A model generated the notes under the pieces. It made no database searches and was not told the origin of the DNA. It was given only the letters and a program-made list of their open reading frames with translations. DNA of 64,000 nt. Source: Escherichia coli. Lineage in GTDB: Bacteria > Pseudomonadota > Gammaproteobacteria > Enterobacterales > Enterobacteriaceae. The DNA lies in the NCBI RefSeq assembly GCF_009931435.1, contig NZ_CP043414.1, one strand, 5' to 3'. The translations under genes were made by a program, and so were the position numbers. This document shows positions 15,734-44,277 of the stretch, piece after piece (within the stretch, counting starts at the first letter, position 1; every line of letters begins with the position of its first letter).

Positions 15734-15785
15734 AAAAATGGCACCTTATAAAGCGCCATTTGAAACTGATGGCAAACGCAACATT

Positions 15786-15961: not shown

Positions 15962-16615
15962 TTATATCCCTTCTTCACTCTCTTTTTTCGCTTCTGCCTT
16001 TTCGATTTCACGATACCAGCGTGGATGGTGTTTCTTCGCCCAACGACGGCTCACCTTCCCTTCGATCATCCCTTTAATCGACCCTTTCACCCAGAATGCC
16101 ATATACATATGGATCAGGATGGCGTGGATCAGGATGATACCCGCAGCCGCGTGAATAAACAGGCTATAACGGACAACCTGTATCGGGAAGTACTGCGCAA
16201 AGTACGGACGCCAGATAATCACCCCGGTTACCAGCAGCACGAAAATCATGCTCATGATCGACCAGAACATCATCTTTTGCCCGGCGTTGTACTTACCAAC
16301 ATCCGCCACTTTGTGTTCATTGCCTTTTAATACTTCGACAATGTTCAACAGCCACGGAATATCTTTCTTATCCGGGATGTTGTGATGCACAAAACGCACA
16401 AACATAAACATCAGCGCGACGAAAATCGCAATGCCGAAGAACGGGTGCAAAATGCGTCCCATCTGCGGCGTACCGAAGGTTTGTGTCAGCCATTGCAGCG
16501 TCGGGAAGAAGAACGAAATCCCGGACAGCGCTACCAGGAAGAAGCAAATCACCACGGTCCAGTGACAGGCGCGATCAATAAACTTGGTGCGCACAATCAT
16601 TTTCGACTTACTCAT
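15962..16615 (-). CDS. fdnI: Formate dehydrogenase-N gamma (cytochrome b556) subunit
   Basis: Track ORF 15962-16657; start ATG at 16615 ([19 protein letters not shown]...) gives 217 aa; overlaps fdnH stop. Confidence 0.9.
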
Positions 16616-17492
16616 GATGATCCTCCTCGTCATCGTCCACTTCCTTATTCGGGCCAATACCGATGTAGTGGAAAATTAACCCGGCAAAAGTGGCGATAAA
16701 GCCAGCCGCTGCCAGCGGTTTCAACGCGCCTTTCCACAGATTTACCGATGTATCGATCTTCGGATCTTTCGGCAGACCGTGATACAGCTCCGGCTGATCG
16801 GCGTGATGCAGCACGTACATGACGTGCGTACCACCGACCCCTTCCGGATTGTAGACACCAGCATGTTCGTAACCACGCGCTTTCAGTTTCGCCACGCGCT
16901 GTTCCGCCAGCTCCAGCATCTCCTTCTTGGTGCCGAAGTGGATAGCCCCGGTCGGACAAGTTTTCACACAAGCCGGTTCCTGACCAACGCTGACGCGATC
17001 GACGCAGAGTGTGCATTTATATACCCGGTTATCCTCTTTGTTGAGGCGTGGAATATTAAACGGACACCCGGCAATGCAGTAACCACAGCCGATGCAGTTT
17101 TCCGACTGGAAATCGACAATCCCGTTAGCGTACTGAATGATCGCACCAGCAGACGGGCACGCCTTCAGGCAGCCCGGATCTTCACAGTGCATACAACCGT
17201 CTTTACGGATCAGCCACTCCAGCTTGCCGTTCTGTTCGGTTTCGCTAAAGCGCATCACCGTCCAGGACTTGGCGCTCAGATCGGCGGGGTTATCATAAAC
17301 CCCGACGCAGTGCCCCACTTCATCACGGATATCGTTCCACTCCGAACACGCCACCTGACAGGCTTTACAGCCGATACAGGTGGAAACGTCGATAAGTTTC
17401 GCGACTTCTGCTTTGTAATCACGCACCTGAGAAGGCGGCGTGATGGAGTTAGTTGCGGACCTTTTGATAATGTCCTGCGTTTCCATAGCCAT
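16608..17492 (-). CDS. fdnH: Formate dehydrogenase-N beta (4Fe-4S) subunit
   Basis: 294 aa; multiple CxxCxxCxxxCP ferredoxin motifs. Confidence 0.93.
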
Positions 17493-17504: not shown

Positions 17505-20500
17505 TTACGCCTTCTCGATGTTGACTAAGAACGCTTTATATTCCGGCGTTTGCGAGTTTGCATCACCGACATTCGGCGTCAGAGTGTTAGCGATATAACC
17601 TTTACGCGCGACACCCTCAAAGCCCCAGTGGATTGGAATACCCACCGTTTCAACCTGCTGACCGTTTACATTCAGTGGTTTCAGACGGCGCGTTACCACA
17701 GCCACCGCGCGGATAAAGCCACGCTTGCTGGAGACAGTGACACGATCGCCATTGGCAATGCCTTTCGCCGCCGCCAGCGTTTCGCTGATTTCCACAAACT
17801 GTTCCGGCTGAGCAATTGCGTTGAGCAACGCGTGCTTGGTCCAGGTGTGGAAGTGCTCGGTCAGACGGTAGGTCGTACCCACATACGGGAACTGCTCTTT
17901 TTTACCCATCCGCAGCGCGTCTTGTTCATACAGACGAACCACCGGGTTAGACACCACGTTCGGATGCAGCGGGTTAGTGCCCAGCGGCGTTTCAATTGGC
18001 TCGTAGTGTTCCGGGAACGGACCTTCCGCCATTTTGTTGATGGCAAACAGGCGTCCCATCCCTTCCGGCTGCATGATAAACGGCCCGGTTGGCGTACCCG
18101 GTGCGGCATTGCCGAAGTCCGGAATATCGTTACCCGTCCACTTGCTGCCGTTCCACTGGATCAGCATCCGTTTCGGATCCCAAGGTTTACCGTTGATATC
18201 CGCCGAAGCACGGTTGTACAGCACGCGACGGTTGAGCGGCCACGCCCAGGCCCATCCCAGCGTATTCCCCAGACCGGACGGGTCGGAGTTATCGCGGTTG
18301 GCCATCTGGTTGCCCTGCTCTGTCCAGCTACCGGTGTAGATCCAGCAAGAAGATGCGGTTGTACCGTCATCACGCAGATGCGCAAAGCTACTCAGCAACT
18401 GCCCTTTCTTCGCAATCAGTACGCCATTAGCGTCATAGAGATCTTCCAGCGCATAGCCGTTATTCTCTTTCGCCACTTCGTCAGACTGCGGTTCGTGCGG
18501 CTGCTTGTAGTTCCAGCTCATCTTCATCAGCGGTTCTACGCCTTTACCACCTTCGGCCTGGTACAGCTCGCGCAGATGATGGTAGATACCCGCCAGAATT
18601 TCGCCGTCATTACGCGCTTCGCCCGGCGCATCCTGACCTTTCCAGTGCCACTGCAACCAGCGACCGGAGTTAGCGATAGAACCATCTTCTTCGGCAAAGC
18701 AGGTCGAAGGCAGACGGAATACTTCAGTCTGAATAGACGCCGGATCGACATCGTTCGACTCGCCGTGGTTCTGCCAGAAGGTGGAGGTTTCAGTCACCAG
18801 CGGATCGATAACCACCATGTACTTCAGCTTGCTCAGGCAGCTCACCACTTTGTTTTTGTCCGGGAAGGACGCAACCGGGTTAAAGCCCTGGCAGAAATAA
18901 CCGGTGACTTTACCTTCATCCATCATGTTGAAATACTTGATGACGTCGTAGGTCTGGTCCCACTTGGGCAGCCAGTCGTAGCCCCAGTTGTTCTCTTTCT
19001 GCGCAGCATCGCCGTAGAAAGATTTCATCAGGCTAACGAAGAACTTCGGATAGTTGCTCCAGTAGTTCACCTGATCAGCCAGCGTCGCTTTCGGCGTGTT
19101 CGCTTCCAGATACGACTGCAAATCAACCTGTTTTTCTGACGGCAGCGTCAGATAACCCGGCAGGCTGGTAGAGAGCAGACCTAAGTCAGTCAGGCCCTGA
19201 ATGTTGGAGTGACCACGCAATGCGTTCACGCCGCCACCAGCCATACCCATGTTACCGAGCAGCAACTGGATCATCGCCATAGTACGGATGTTCTGCGCAC
19301 CCACGGTGTGTTGGGTCCAGCCCAGCGCGTACAGGAAGGTGGTTGTGCGATCCGGCGCGCTGGTGGAGGCCAGCACTTCACATACTTTCAGGAAGTCAGC
19401 TTTTGGCGTACCGCAGATGTTTTCTACTACGTCCGGCGTGTAACGGGAAACGTGCGCTTTCAGCAAGTTCCACACACAGCGCGGATGGGTCAGTGTTTCA
19501 TCGCGTTTCGCATAGCCATTTTCATCGAACTGATAGTTCCAGGACGACTTATCGTACTGACGTTTTTCAGCGTCATAACCGCTGAACAGGCCGTCTTCAA
19601 AAGTAAAATCATCACGCACCAGCAGGCTGGCGTTGGTGTAATGCTTAACGTATTCGGCGTTGATCTTGTTGTTTTCGATCAGGTAGCGCAAAACGCCAGA
19701 CAGGAACGTAATGTCCGTACCGGAACGAATAGGTGCGTAGATATCCGCCACAGAAGCGGTACGCGTAAAACGGGGATCGACAACGATCAAGGTTGCATCG
19801 TTGTTGTTTTTCGCTTCCATCGCCCAGCGAAAACCGACGGGATGCGCTTCAGCAGCGTTACCGCCCATCACCATTACGACGTTAGCGTTTTTGATATCCA
19901 CCCAGTGGTTGGTCATTGCACCGCGACCAAATGTTGGAGCAAGACTTGCTACCGTTGGTCCGTGTCAGACGCGCGCCTGGTTGTCTACCGCCAGCATCCC
20001 GAGGGAGCGGGCAAATTTCTGTGTCAGCATCCCGGTTTCGTTGCTGGCACCGGAAGCACACAGCATACCGGTAGAAAGCCAACGGTTTACCGTTACGCCC
20101 TGCTCATTCTTTTCAATAAAGTTAGCGTCACGGTCTGCCTTCATCAGCTTCGCAATGCGGGAGAATGCTTCTTCCCAGCTAATGCGCTGCCATTTGTCAG
20201 AACCTGGCGCACGATATTCCGGGTAGCGCAGACGGTTTTCGCTGTTGACGTAATCCAGCAATCCGGCCCCTTTCGGGCACAGCGCACCACGGCTTACCGG
20301 ATGATCCGGGTCACCTTCAATGTGATAAATCGCTTCTCTGGCGTTTTTCGCGCCATCACCCAGGCTATACATCAATAGCCCGCAACCTACGGAACAGTAT
20401 GTACAAGTGTTACGGATCTCTTTCGCGCGTAATAATTTGTAGTTTCGCGCCTGAGCCAGTGCTTGCTTCGGGGCAAAGCCCAATGCCGCGACTGTTGTTC

Positions 20501-20552
20501 CCGCCATACCGCCCGCGCAGATTTTAAAAAATTGTCTGCGACTGACGTCCAT
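17505..20552 (-). CDS. fdnG: Formate dehydrogenase-N alpha subunit (selenocysteine-containing molybdoenzyme)
   Basis: Two in-frame track ORFs (19965-20552 and 17505-19916) joined through an in-frame TGA at 19965-19967; Tat signal MDVSRRQFFKICAGGMAG; total 1015 codons including Sec. Confidence 0.93.
19917..19967 (-). promoter_or_regulatory. Selenocysteine UGA codon with immediately downstream SECIS-like hairpin region in fdnG mRNA
   Basis: In-frame TGA flanked by conserved ...VDNQARV-U-HGPTVASLA... context; palindromic agcaag/cttgct immediately 3' of UGA. Confidence 0.6.
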
Positions 20553-40024: not shown

Positions 40025-43000
40025 CTATTCTGGCGTGCCATTTATTGTTGCCGTCTGCGTTGGTGTATTCACACGATAATACACTCCATTATATGCTGTT
40101 CTGGTACACTCACCTAAAGTTTTCGCCGCATGCTGTTCAATTAAAGTGATAACTCTCGCCTCTTCTTTATTTTTATATTGTTCATCCGCACGTCTCACAA
40201 GCCCCATATAACCATCCTTATCAATAAGATATAAGTGCGCATGAGCAAACTCATGCCCCAAACCTAATGCAGGTGATTGTGATTTCGATTTTAAATCAGT
40301 TGAACAAAATAAAGCCGCCTTACCATTCCAATATATAGTCATTTTATCCGGGTCAAATCTAACGTCGGTTTCATCAATATACTCTATCTTTATGGTTTCT
40401 TCAGAGCTTGATAAAAAATCTATAGCTTCTTTCATTCGTGAATCTTGTTTTAAATACTCAACAGCCTGATTAAAATCACTTGGATCACCGTTAACATGGA
40501 ATTTTAAACCCAAAGAATCTATAAACCGAACAGGGTTTAATGGATATTTATACAGATTCCATTCACCTCTTAGCCCGATTGGATCCTGGGTGATATACCT
40601 CCCCTGTAGCGGGTCATAGTACCGGTTCCGGTTATAATACAGCCCCGACTCCTCATCGTGTTGCTGCCCTGGCAGACGGTACGGCTGGTGCATGTGATGC
40701 GAGTTTTCCTCATTCAGCAGGTTTCCCCACTCATCATACTCCCCGCTCCACGCCGTATTGCCGTCTTCGCTGATGAGCGCCAGCGGCAGGCCCCGGTGGT
40801 CGCAGTGATACAGATGCAGCGTGCGTGCCGGTGTGTATTCCGGCTCCACCTGTCTGGCCAGTTGCTCCACCGTCAGCCCGCACTGCGCAAGCCACGCCCG
40901 GCTTTCACTGCTCACGCGGTCTGCCCGGATTTCTTCCTCCAGCCTGTCCAGCATCCTCACAAGTTCTGCCGGGAACACCACACCGTGCCCGTCCTCACTC
41001 CCTTCCTGCTGCAGCTTCTCCGCCAGGCTCCGGCGCTGCGCTTTCTCCCGCTCGCCGTTCTCTGTTTCGATGCGGATGAGCGGCGTGAAGCTCCCAGGCT
41101 GGTAGACCGTCTGGATACGTGTGGTGTCGGTCTGTACCGTCGTCAGCCGGTCACCGTCCCACCCGTACCACGTTACCTCCGGTTTACGCGACAGCGACAT
41201 CCACCCCGTCAGGTCACGCTCCCGCCGCCATACCCGTTTCGCCATTCGCCGTCCCAGCGGGTCGTAGAGGTAGCGGCTCTCGACCAGTGGCTCGCCATGC
41301 TGTATCCGCGTGTAGAACACCAGGCGTGCTGGCTGTCGTAGTGGTAGTGGTGGGTCCGCTCGTCGTCCGTCCGTATCACACCCGCCGGGATGCGGTCCGT
41401 CTTCTCCGTCAGCCTGCCGTATTCATCGTGGCGGTAGACATAGTGCGCATCCTCCGCGATGCGGTTATCCGGCCACACTGTGAGTGTACTGTCCGGGTGC
41501 AGCTCCGGGTCCGGCAGCCGGTTGCCCGCCGGGTCCGTGGCATACGGGATGCGGATGTCCAGGTCCGGTGCGAGGGTGCGCACGCTCTCCAGCCTGCCCG
41601 TGGCACTGTAGCCGTATTCCCGCGTCTGTCGCGGGCCGCTGATGCGCACCAGGTCGCCGTTGTCATTCCACCCGTAGTCACGGTCATACACCAGGCTGTT
41701 CAGGTGCTGACTCTGTAACTGACCTGCGGGGGTGTATGTGCTGGTCAGTTCGTATGCGGAATTACTGCCTGCCATGCTGCCGAAGCTGCGCACCGTCTCA
41801 CGGTGCAGCCTGTCCCGCGTATACTCGACCAGCGGCGTCCCGCCCAGCTTCATTCCCGCCAGGTAACCGCTGCCATACGTCAGCCACTCCACCGGCGGCA
41901 GGCTGTCCGGCGTGACGCGGTTTGCCAGCCCCTGTTCGTTGTATGCCTGTTTCGTCTCATGCTGCCAGAGCAGTTCCTCCGTCTCCGGGTTATGCACCGT
42001 CTGGCGCTCGCCAGTCAGACGGCCCTTGTCGTCATAGCCATAGTGGACGGCAACACGGTGGCCTTCGCTCAGGTGGCTGATTTCTCTCAGCCAGCCGTGG
42101 CCATCATACTGCCACTGCTCTGCCGGTTCGCCGTTCACCGTGCGGTGCGTGATGCGGTCCGATTCGTCGTAGTGCCAGAGGGTGACAAGCCCCTCATCTT
42201 CACTCTGCGTGAGTTTTCCGGTCAGGTCATAGTGGTAACGTTGCGTCCGCCCGTCAAAGCCGCGCTGCTGTACCAGCCGGTCCAGCGCATCGTAGGTAAA
42301 CTCACTTCGGCTGCCGTTCTCGTTAGTCAGCGTGGTGACACGTCCGGCAGCATCATACTCCATACTGCGCGTCAGCCCGCCCTGCGTGGTACTGACCGCC
42401 TTTCCCCACGCATCGTACTGTGTCTCACTCCGGTTGCCATCCGGGGTGATGACGGCGGTCAGGTCGCCTGCGGCGTTGTACTCATACTGCGTTTCACGGC
42501 CCTGTGCGTCTTTCACCGAGGTTAACCGGCCACGGTTGTCATAGCGGCGGTAAAGGCTGATACCTTCCTCGCGGTGAACCGCCGTCATCTGGCCGAAGCG
42601 GTCGTATTCATAGCGGGTCTGGTAGCCCGAGCAGTCGGTGAAGGCCAGCAACTGCCCGTAGCGGCTCCAGGTCATCTGCCGGGTGCTGCCCGTCGCATCC
42701 GTTGTCGTCGCCGGTAACTCACTGTGCGGATTATCATAAGCATACCGGATGACGTCCCCGCTGCGCGATGTCTCCGTTACCAGCCTGTCCCGCTCATCAT
42801 ACGCCCGGCGGCTCTCCAGCCCGTCCGGGGACACCACCGCCGTTAACTGGTTCCCGTCGTTATAGTAAAATTTCGTCTCCCGCCCGTCCGGCGTGGTGAT
42901 ATCCGTGATATCGCCGGACACCACATTCAGGCCGTACTCTGTCCGCCGTCCCGCCGCGTCCGTCTGTGCCGTGAGCCTTCCTGCCGCGTCATACCCGCTG

Positions 43001-44277
43001 TGCGTGACGCTGCCGTCCGCCAGTTCTTTTTTCACCACCCGCTTCAGCCCGGCCCCGCCTTCTGTATGCAGCACCTCTCGCCGGTTCAGGCTGTCCGTGA
43101 TGGTGATGCGGTCCTGCTCATAAAGATAGCGATAGCTTAACCCTGCCGGGTTCAGCTGCTCCACCACCCGCCCGGTATCGTCGTAGCGGTAGCGCATCTC
43201 CGGCCTTCCCGCATAACGGTGCCCCACCATCCGGCCCGGGTGCTGCGCGTCATACGTGAAAGCGCGCACCTGCGTATTGCTGCGGTCATATACCGCCAGC
43301 AGTTCACCGGCTTCCGTATACGTGTAACGCGCCAGTGGCGCACCGGGCAGATTCTCCGGGTATGCCGGGTCGTGCATCAGCCACACCGCCGAAAGACGGA
43401 TGCCCCTGTCGGGGCCGTATTCCGTACCGGGCAGTGTGTCGGGGAACGCTGAGGCTGAGAGAGGGCGGGAACGGTCAGAAGAAGATAGCGAAGAGGTGCG
43501 GGCCTCTTCCGCACGCTGCGCCTGCGTGGTCAGCACCAGACGGAACTTCCGCCCGGCACCGTCCGTCACGCTGGTGATTTCCCCAGCCAGGTCACCGGCG
43601 GCCTCACGCCGGTACGTCAGCGTCCGCCCGAAGCGGTCCGCCAGCCCGGTAAGCACCCGGTACGGCGGCAGCGGCGCTGGCAGTACGTCCTCAGCACCCG
43701 GCACCCGCTCACTCCACCCCAGTATCCACCACGACCCCTGTGCGCTGTTGGTCGCCAGGTAAAGATGCGGGCTTAACCGGATATCCGGCGGCAGCGCCCC
43801 CCACAGTCGCGCCAGCGTGTGGCCGTCCGGCTGCGCTGCCTTACCACCGCGCACCAGCCACATTGACTCGCTGCGGCTGTACACCGCCTCCCCCGGCAGC
43901 AGCGGCTCAAAGTGAATGCTCCGCCCGCCGTTGTCGTTGAGTATCAGTGCGTCATCACGTAGCTGTAAGCGGATATCCGAAGGCGCTTTCCAGCCGGGGC
44001 CGAAAACGCCCACCGGGGCAGGCGTCCTCGTCCGGTAGCTGCTGTAGGTGCGGGAGAGAATGAACGGCAGCGGGCCGGGCAGCGCAAGGTCCGTCTCGCC
44101 GGGCAGCACCTTCGCCCCCAGCAGCGGATTTACCGGGTTGCCCGAAGTCATCCCGCCCGGACACACCGAGCACGCCACGCCGGTGGGCGCGCCAATTCTT
44201 ACACCTGCCGAACCCTGGACAATGGGACCGCCATACTGAGTCATATCTCCCTGACGCGCTGCTGGTTTTCCGCTCAT
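40025..44277 (-). CDS. Rhs-family polymorphic toxin (PAAR-like N-terminus, YD-repeat shell, variable C-terminal tip), interrupted by an apparent -1 frameshift near 41325
   Basis: Track ORFs 41209-44277 (1022 aa) and 40025-41320 (431 aa) overlap in different frames; YD repeats throughout; DPIGL core-end motif; C-terminal tip contains HEFAH. Confidence 0.85.

Follow-up and report, generated by a model that had tools for sequence, protein, structure and literature searches.

The in-frame UGA codon 196 of fdnG in an Escherichia coli fdnGHI operon, a known selenocysteine codon followed by a bacterial SECIS hairpin

The window analysed here, a stretch of 64,000 nucleotides of E. coli DNA (assembly GCF_009931435.1, contig NZ_CP043414.1), carries on its minus strand fdnG, which encodes the catalytic subunit of the nitrate-inducible respiratory formate dehydrogenase, followed by the genes of the beta and gamma subunits. 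On translation, fdnG (20552..17505) is a 1016-codon frame of 1015 residues and a stop, where we find a sole internal TGA at codon 196. The protein-coding features of the locus, together with the putative end of the operon, are as follows:

20454–20552, minus strand: N-terminal Tat signal region of FdnG, MDVSRRQFFKICAGG...ALA (from the translation)
19965–19967, minus strand: UGA codon 196, the selenocysteine codon (from the 1kqf_A alignment and the codons of homologues)
17505–20552, minus strand: fdnG, FDH-N alpha (catalytic, molybdopterin) subunit (from the translation, 1kqf_A, TIGR01553 and RefSeq relatives)
16608–17492, minus strand: fdnH, iron-sulfur beta subunit (NCBIfam TIGR01582, 482 bits, cutoff 334.7; synteny)
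15962–16615, minus strand: fdnI, cytochrome b gamma subunit (NCBIfam NF007558, FDH-N gamma, 484 bits, cutoff 339; synteny)
15736–15761, minus strand: terminator-like hairpin and T run after fdnI (consensus scan)

The operon partners are those of an FDH-N, with a beta subunit FdnH and a gamma subunit FdnI of the FDH-N type, the FDH-O gamma model staying below its cutoff on fdnI (268.5 against 341). The terminator-like hairpin would likely be the operon end, a proposal for which the consensus scan weighs little because such sites are no commoner in the region than in shuffles. Upstream of fdnG, the promoter scan found no consensus sigma-70 site, and its counts were below the shuffle expectation.

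When open reading frames are called mechanically, fdnG appears as two pieces in the same frame, 19965..20552 (195 aa) and 17505..19916 (803 aa from its first ATG). The 48 nt that lie between them (19917–19964) contain neither a stop nor a start codon and, since this gap is stop-free, the TGA is the only interruption of the gene, as had been proposed in a sequence-only reading of the window. The peptide context LAVDNQARV quoted in that reading is exact, the residues around the codon being LAVDNQARV*HGPTVASLAPTFGRGAMTNHW, or ...NQARV-U-HGPTVASLAPTFGR with the selenocysteine expected at residue 196. It also placed the TGA correctly at 19965–19967 and left out its strand, which is minus: the plus strand has TCA at these positions, corresponding to codon 196 at 19967..19965. 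The interval that it had marked, 19917–19967, consists of the TGA plus the 48-nt gap, and contains the hairpin described below minus its outermost bases. The warning that a naive call would split the gene was borne out by the mechanical ORF call itself, and the value of recognizing the codon lies in annotation, as a naive gene caller splits fdnG or flags it as a pseudogene. In RefSeq relatives, fdnG is annotated as a single uninterrupted CDS of 3048 nt without a pseudogene flag.

At the protein level, the fdnG product could be aligned over residues 1–1015 with the E. coli FdnG chain of PDB entry 1KQF (1kqf_A; 2393 bits) with just five substitutions, Cys standing in for residue 196 in the structure-database query. 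The TGA falls on residue 196 of this chain, a non-standard one (X) known as Sec196, the Mo ligand of the E. coli FDH-N structure. Residues 1–33 of FdnG are identical to residues 1–33 of 1kqf_A, and the region is presumably a twin-arginine (Tat) signal, an assignment that we adopt as established knowledge. The NCBIfam equivalog TIGR01553 (cutoff 814.2) aligns with the two halves of the gene at profile positions 1–194 (279.5 bits) and 196–1009 (1316 bits), so that the TGA corresponds to the one profile column skipped between them. Together with 1KQF, the two halves amount to a full-length match to FDH-N alpha, with the TGA at the position where this subunit has Sec (or Cys) as its Mo ligand. The same coincidence was seen with FdhA of D. 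vulgaris (PDB 6SDR and others), a Sec-containing periplasmic enzyme with full-length homology to FdnG (E about 1e-287), whose chains carry an X at the position aligned to the TGA, whereas the engineered variant 9qm0 has a Cys. The check by alignment suggested in the sequence-only reading is therefore answered twice by a non-standard residue.

The most direct objection would be that the TGA is a real stop, and fdnG a pseudogene or split gene with a 195-residue fragment and an 803-codon ORF that is untranslated or separately started. Nothing speaks for it beyond the mechanical ORF call, which breaks the gene at the TGA. Against it, pN/pS is 0 for codons 1–195 and 0.031 for codons 197–1015 with the same pS of 0.104 on both sides, which indicates that selection after the TGA is as strong as upstream, and the low values on either side argue that both parts are translated. 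Moreover, the solved structure is one continuous chain of 1015 residues, 116 of the 120 homologues retain the TGA across phyla, as do E. coli fdnG and fdoG, and the codon is followed by a SECIS element and by 48 nt without a start codon. Altogether, a real stop at this position is extremely improbable.

The RNA element just 3′ of the codon comprises the following features:

19912–19970, minus strand: full extent of the SECIS_3 match, from the Val195 codon (3 nt before the TGA) and with the UGA included
19920–19965, minus strand: SECIS hairpin as folded (MFE fold), with a lower stem, an internal loop and an apical stem-loop
19936–19953, minus strand: apical stem-loop GGUAGCAAGUCUUGCUCC, the putative SelB-binding part (from covariation and base spacing)

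The match to the Rfam family SECIS_3 (RF01989) spans the whole model (1–59 of 59; 59 nt) and, with 83.8 bits, lies well above the gathering score of 63 (E = 1.6e-20 for the local search, 2.1e-18 for the 64-kb window). No other Rfam family reached its cutoff in the window. The fdhF-type model SECIS_2 (RF01988) was also tried on the element and rejected, since its score of 28.8 bits falls far short of the 70 required for gathering. The segment 3′ of the TGA folds as a hairpin of −14.6 kcal/mol (54 nt) or −13.8 kcal/mol (48 nt), whose lower stem pairs 19965–19955 with 19930–19920 in the MFE register. Such a stability is not beyond chance, as the mean of 200 dinucleotide shuffles was −13.5 kcal/mol (z = −0.42), with 67 of them as stable or better. 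For this reason stability was not used as evidence, and the support for the hairpin is comparative: what goes beyond chance is the covariance-model match and the comparative evidence described below. The palindromic, SECIS-like segment of the sequence-only reading is thus a SECIS by its model match and by the bacterial consensus, but "palindromic" was an overstatement, and the folding that it had suggested as a check produces the hairpin and not a stability above that of shuffled sequences.

A close-up view of the apical stem-loop shows a bulged U at 19951, which is position 17 when the U of the UGA is taken as 1, and the loop bases G23 at 19945 and U24 at 19944. A role of U17, G23 and U24 in SelB binding would be expected from the fdhF literature. 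The element was also scored against the bacterial SECIS consensus, as summarized in the legend of Fig. 2 of PMC13188914: a stem-loop directly downstream of the in-frame UGA and within the coding region; an apical loop of 3–9 nt on an upper stem of 4–16 bp; a G in the first two loop positions with the pattern N1-G-[G|U]-N-N2; 16–37 nt from the UGA to the apical loop; and an MFE of −7.5 kcal/mol or lower. The fdnG hairpin agrees with the consensus on every point. It starts at or next to the UGA and has a 7-bp upper stem interrupted by a single bulged U and closed by a GUC loop (3 nt), which becomes AGUCU (5 nt) when A25-U29 does not pair; in the loop sequence A-G-U-C-U the A and the U can pair, the first loop base is 18–19 nt from the A of the UGA, and the MFE is −13.8 to −14.6 kcal/mol, although not lower than that of shuffles.

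Comparison with homologues from other species gave TGA at the Sec site in 116 of 120 cases and a Cys codon in the remaining four. Over 73 distinct sequences, the seven pairs of the apical helix were 97.8% paired, with changes on both sides in four of the seven, a score reached by none of 500 shuffles, while helices slid along the alignment as controls were 28–50% paired. The lower stem was 82–84% paired over the same 73 homologues in either the Rfam or the MFE register, with little covariation, which leaves its exact pairing loosely defined. In the loop, G23 was conserved in 115 and U24 in all of the 117 TGA sequences, and none of the four Cys sequences had both. The invariance of U17 was rejected as evidence, because the pattern used to search for homologues fixed the first two bases of seven codons and so preset this base (in the GT of a Val codon). 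SECIS_3 itself was present at the four TGA loci sampled from other proteobacterial and from acidobacterial lineages, and at none of the four Cys loci. The genes sampled from Desulfovibrionaceae (two loci) have a different downstream hairpin, which lacks G23 and stays below the SECIS_3 cutoff.

The hairpin thus co-occurs with TGA and not with Cys codons, no hairpin being found in the four Cys homologues of fdnG. As all four belong to the Neisseriales, they probably represent one evolutionary event. The sequence-only reading had held that homologues with Cys at this position would speak against selenocysteine, a criterion that turned out to be wrong, because it is by Sec/Cys pairs that a genuine Sec site is usually recognised (PMC13188914). 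A related objection is that the TGA might stand for a TGC or TGT (Cys) misread in sequencing or assembly, for which a single-base difference would suffice; its probability is practically nil, given that the same TGA with its flanking 100 nt is found at an identity of at least 99% in 5365 of 5433 E. coli records, that K-12 has it too, and that so do the 116 homologues from other species.

Translation past the codon could also be conceived as reading of the UGA by a near-cognate tRNA (Trp or Cys) instead of Sec-tRNA(Sec). Low-level read-through of UGA by tRNA-Trp does exist in E. coli, and four homologues function with Cys at the site. Yet a covarying SECIS hairpin that tracks the TGA and is absent from Cys homologues, a near-identical solved protein with a non-standard residue at 196, and a selenocysteine machinery that is essentially universal in E. 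coli make this mode of decoding highly unlikely. As for that machinery, the 64-kb window contains no tRNA gene, and its syntenic annotation lists no sel gene; in a survey of the complete E. coli genome collection (5426 genomes), selAB were found in 5425, selC in 5424 and selD in 5425. None of the complete E. coli genomes compared matches the window exactly, the best one reaching 98.9% over 1–25 kb and 94–97% beyond. From established knowledge, the source genome would be expected to carry selA, selB, selC and selD. A tRNA gene adjoining the homologue from Paracoccus was considered as a tRNA-Sec and proved to be a tRNA-Leu.

A continuous frame, near-identity to a Sec enzyme, a SECIS match with covariation, a peak of nucleotide conservation at the hairpin and purifying selection on both sides of the UGA are all observed at the locus. 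That the UGA196 of fdnG, in an fdnGHI operon, is decoded as selenocysteine through a 3′ SECIS bound by SelB is then, in our view, nearly certain, and the proposal that it is a Sec codon and not a gene break is upheld by the X196 of 1KQF, by SECIS_3 and by the single RefSeq CDS. In the mechanism that this implies, the mRNA just 3′ of the UGA would fold into a bacterial SECIS hairpin, whose apical stem-loop (bulged U +17, G +23, U +24) is believed from established knowledge to be bound by SelB together with GTP and Sec-tRNA(Sec). The tethered complex would hand the Sec-tRNA(Sec) (anticodon UCA, encoded by selC) to the ribosomal A site at the UGA, where, on the same grounds, it would outcompete release factor 2, and translation would go on after Sec insertion for 819 codons. 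The inserted Sec, as established for 1KQF, would serve as the molybdenum ligand in the FDH-N active site.

fdnG is an intact selenoprotein gene, and the feature has been known since 1991. Nothing in it is scientifically new: PDB entry 1KQF already contains the structure with Sec, and Rfam has a dedicated family for the RNA element. The UGA of fdnG is useful as a positive control for genome scans, its recoding being recognisable from the raw sequence. As cited in PMC13188914, Berg et al. (1991) reported both that UGA encodes Sec in fdnG and a full-length selenium-containing FdnG of about 113 kDa in K-12, and this review describes the SECIS elements of the three E. coli formate dehydrogenases as the best characterised. 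The K-12 gene (b1474; 1KQF/1KQG) is like that of the window in length, in the TGA at codon 196 and in its operon context, yddG, fdnG-fdnH-fdnI and yddM. The UGA and the following 47 nt are identical in both, and the proteins differ at 5 of 1015 residues. At the nucleotide level, identity is 97.44%, and of the 78 differences 71 are in codons that still specify the same amino acid, among them a synonymous GCG to GCA change (window position 19917) just 3′ of the hairpin. These comparisons indicate no functional difference between the two genes.

The fdhF SECIS of E. coli (FDH-H, Sec140) is the experimentally best-studied bacterial SECIS. As in fdnG, its hairpin lies directly 3′ of the UGA, with the bulged U +17, G +23 and U +24 of K-12 fdhF at the same spacing from the codon, and the peptide after Sec is likewise U-HGP. 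In contrast, its stem sequence differs, and its loop is a 4-nt GGUC compared with the AGUCU or GUC of fdnG. The gene fdoG, the FDH-O alpha paralogue of E. coli, also has its Sec at residue 196 with TGA at codon 196, and its UGA plus 47 nt are identical to those of the window. The two genes share 74.4% of nucleotides (54.4% at third positions) and 77.0% of amino acids, fdoG being one residue longer. Against this background, the longest run identical between K-12 fdoG and the window extends over 53 nt from gene nt 583 (19970, the Val195 codon) and has the UGA and the hairpin inside, and the 16-codon stretch from codon 196 is 100% identical between fdnG and fdoG, which ranks first of 1000.

It is a rather doubtful possibility that this constraint in Enterobacterales reaches well past the minimal SelB-binding stem-loop, through a second function or through recurrent gene conversion between fdnG and fdoG. 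If there were a second function of the extended element, it could be the tuning of ribosome pausing or unwinding at the UGA, or of the competition with RF2. Starting at the Val195 codon, 62 nt show no difference across 22 Enterobacterales loci, which come from Yersinia, Photorhabdus, Providencia, Morganella, Serratia, Citrobacter, Enterobacter, Klebsiella and Pluralibacter, and this identical stretch takes in unpaired third-codon positions as well as the register-ambiguous lower stem.

The gene for the alpha subunit of formate dehydrogenase-N, fdnG, occupies 20552..17505 on the minus strand, a strand that the sequence-only reading did not state, and its 1016 codons show in translation a sole internal stop at codon 196, where TCA at 19965-19967 of the plus strand reads TGA. 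The ORFs concerned are:

19965..20552, minus strand: upstream mechanical ORF of fdnG, 195 aa
17505..19916, minus strand: downstream mechanical ORF of fdnG, 803 aa from its first ATG, in the frame of the 195-aa ORF
Next ORF after fdnG: fdnH (beta subunit), above the cutoff of TIGR01582
Second ORF after fdnG: fdnI (gamma subunit), passing the FDH-N gamma model and failing the FDH-O gamma model

That only the TGA parts the two fdnG ORFs was borne out, as they share one frame and the 48-nt gap between them holds no stop, so that 19917-19967 corresponds to the TGA plus a start-less inter-ORF gap; the interval includes a downstream hairpin minus its outermost bases. The context that had been quoted, LAVDNQARV-U-HGPTVASLAPTFGRGAMTNHW, agrees exactly with the translated peptide around codon 196 (LAVDNQARV*HGPTVASLAPTFGRGAMTNHW). 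With respect to the fdnG of K-12 (97.44% identity, 5 amino-acid changes), codons 1-195 present 14 synonymous and 0 non-synonymous differences, and codons 197-1015 present 58 and 6, respectively. The pS was 0.104 on both sides of the UGA, with a pN/pS of 0 upstream and 0.031 downstream, a ratio that an untranslated region would lose and that therefore indicates that the TGA is not the end of the protein.

The identity of the product points in the same direction. FdnG, with a placeholder at residue 196, aligned from 1-1015 to 1-1015 with PDB 1kqf_A (2393 bits), described as 'formate dehydrogenase, nitrate-inducible, major subunit', whose position 196 is a non-standard residue (X) located exactly at the TGA codon. 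In Desulfovibrio vulgaris, the 'selenocysteine-containing' FdhA chains likewise have X at this place in the alignment, with Cys in one engineered entry, so the proposed alignment to Sec formate dehydrogenases places the TGA on the non-standard residue in both enzymes. Moreover, both halves of fdnG match NCBIfam TIGR01553 (formate dehydrogenase-N subunit alpha equivalog) at profile positions 1-194 and 196-1009, so that no column but that of the Sec is left out. In RefSeq, the fdnG of K-12 and of related genomes is a single 3048-nt CDS without a pseudogene flag, and the synteny of the window is that of the E. coli 33-minute region (dosCP, ddpXABCDF, osmC, bdm, sra, maeA, adhP, a higB-type toxin gene with yddM, fdnIHG, yddG, a porin gene, LRR genes and narU-narZYWV).

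At the RNA level, a 54-nt segment starting at 19970 forms an MFE hairpin of -14.6 kcal/mol. The hairpin expected 3' of the UGA does form, but its stability does not exceed that of dinucleotide shuffles (mean -13.5 kcal/mol, z = -0.42), so that folding stability alone is not evidence. The decisive result was the covariance-model scan, in which Rfam SECIS_3 (RF01989) matched at full length 19970..19912 on the minus strand with 83.8 bits (gathering score 63), the only Rfam family at its cutoff within the 64-kb window; membership of SECIS_2 was rejected (28.8 bits vs 70). The 'palindromic' SECIS-like segment is thus a SECIS, whereas its palindrome has no significance of its own. The element agrees with all four criteria of the bacterial SECIS consensus model quoted by a 2026 review (PMC13188914): an apical loop of 3-5 nt on an upper stem of 7 bp, a loop A-G-U-C-U fitting N1-G-[G|U]-N-N2, a UGA-to-loop distance of 18-19 nt and an MFE below -7.5 kcal/mol. 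With the U of UGA numbered 1, a bulged U at +17, a loop G at +23 and a loop U at +24 lie at distances equal to those in K-12 fdhF, the formate dehydrogenase-H gene. From the fdhF literature, we take these three bases to be SelB contacts.

A scan of species-representative genomes for A-R-V-(TGA/TGC/TGT)-H-G-P-T-V, with third positions free, found at least 120 loci, those listed coming from Gamma-, Beta- and Alphaproteobacteria, Acidobacteria, Geobacter relatives, Myxococcota, an actinomycete MAG and Desulfovibrionaceae. Of the 120 matches listed, 116 have TGA at the Sec position and the other 4 have a Cys codon there. The 117 TGA sequences (listed matches plus the window) keep on average 6.91 of the 7 apical pairs, with G23 in 115 and U24 in all 117, U17 being among the bases fixed by a pattern that set the first two positions of seven codons. 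The four Cys sequences listed keep 3.75 of 7 pairs and lack both G23 and U24. Across 73 distinct TGA sequences among the matches listed, the apical helix was 97.8% paired, with both-sided changes in 4 of 7 pairs (pair 24-30 was AU in 41, CG in 28 and GC in 2). The observed covariation was reached by 0 of 500 shuffles, a count that is not a probability since the sequences are phylogenetically related, and pairing fell to 28-50% when partners were slid by 1-3 columns. Several compensatory changes recode the peptide (ASLAP, AGLAP, SSLGP), and therefore the protein sequence varies while pairing persists. Pairing is less complete in the lower stem, at 82-84% whether the Rfam or the MFE register is used.

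As a control, four of four sampled TGA loci (Yersinia, Pseudomonas, Paracoccus and Terriglobia) passed the SECIS_3 cutoff and none of the four Cys loci did. This dedicated hairpin, which tracks the TGA and is missing from the Cys homologues, contradicts read-through of the UGA by a standard tRNA. Likewise, a real stop leaving fdnG as a pseudogene is contradicted by the downstream pN/pS, the retention of TGA across phyla, the SECIS after the codon and the full-length solved chain, all of which support the interpretation of the in-frame UGA as a selenocysteine codon and not a gene break. Cys-reading homologues had been put forward as an argument against selenocysteine, yet the few found carry no such weight, Sec/Cys pairs being the expected signature of Sec sites (PMC13188914). 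Among the matches listed, Cys codons occur only in Neisseriales (loci L005, L015, L047 and L106: two Vogesella, Snodgrassella and a Neisseriaceae MAG); the four probably represent one event, in line with a single switch from Sec to Cys and later decay of the SECIS. The two TGA sequences without G23 are from Desulfovibrionaceae and have a hairpin of another kind: loci L033 and L067 (Desulfovibrio, Mailhella) keep the TGA, have C for G at +23 within a different downstream hairpin (GGCUCUGGCAGAGUC...) and fail SECIS_3, a distinct SECIS type inside the same enzyme family. In Yersinia aldovae (L010, 1920-2111), Rfam FdoG1_thermometer was matched with 228 bits in the 5' UTR, ~550 nt upstream of its SECIS; the Rfam scan found none at cutoff within the window.

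Within E. coli, the UGA plus 47 nt are identical to the window's in K-12 fdnG and in its paralogue fdoG (formate dehydrogenase-O alpha), genes with 74.4% identity overall and 54.4% at third positions. The 16-codon window from codon 196 is 100% identical between both, first among 1000 sliding windows, and their longest identical run is 53 nt, from the Val195 codon. Of 5433 E. coli records, 5365 reach at least 99% identity over the 100 nt that surround the UGA, with mostly 95-99% for the whole gene, and the most divergent copy, an fdoG-type gene, retains the TGA and every hairpin base. A sequencing error at the TGA is contradicted by this identical sequence in thousands of genomes. Among the matches listed, 22 loci spread over many enterobacterial genera have the same sequence over the 62 nt from the Val195 codon, unpaired third-codon positions included (L010, L024, L027, L028, L031, L037, L044, L054, L057, L064, L072, L073, L075, L080, L089, L110, L113 and others), and therefore the constraint seems to extend beyond the minimal stem-loop that binds SelB. 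Judged by these alignments, the whole 53-62 nt, beyond that stem-loop, appear invariant across Enterobacterales and between paralogues.

SelB-mediated Sec delivery is an established mechanism in E. coli. Neither tRNA nor sel genes were found within the window, as expected because K-12 has selAB, selC and selD elsewhere on the chromosome; of 5426 complete E. coli genomes, 5425 carry selAB, 5424 selC and 5425 selD. SelB with GTP and Sec-tRNA(Sec) would bind the apical stem-loop of the SECIS and, with UGA196 in the ribosomal A site, the tethered complex would deliver Sec in competition with RF2. The hairpin would then be unwound and translated as HGPTVASLAPTFGRG, and Sec196 would become the molybdenum ligand of FDH-N. 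The selenocysteine UGA and SECIS of fdnG are already known: PMC13188914 credits the fdnGHI sequence, together with the evidence for UGA-encoded selenocysteine, to Berg et al. 1991 (J Biol Chem 266:22380), and names the SECIS elements of the three E. coli FDH genes as the best characterised.

Other features of the window are:

17550-19139, plus strand: antisense ORF opposite fdnG, 529 aa
19209-20378, plus strand: antisense ORF opposite fdnG, 389 aa
674-2056, plus strand: dosC, intact 460-aa ORF
21925-25760, plus strand: between yddG and narU, an intact 366-aa porin ORF and two ~417-aa ORFs (hypothetical/leucine-rich-repeat)
40025-44277, minus strand: Rhs core region, two overlapping ORFs in differing frames, 1022 aa and 431 aa

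The antisense ORFs lie in codon-aligned register, where stops arise only opposite sense TTA, CTA or TCA, and both are most likely mechanical consequences of codon usage, not genes. The dosC gene is frameshifted by annotation in the close relative NZ_CP169309.1. The K-12 counterparts of the porin and the two ~417-aa ORFs are presumably the degraded yddL, yddK and yddJ. In related genomes, the annotation of an 'RHS element core protein' includes an internal stop, and a genuine gene break is more plausible in the Rhs core than in fdnG. Compared with the best complete E. coli genome, identity drops from 98.9% over 1-25 kb to 94-97% over 23-41 kb and ~95% over 39-64 kb, and relatives bear differing insertions in 23000-64000 (group II intron, ISAs1, IS3); the part of the window with LRR, Rhs and T6SS-Vgr is variable.
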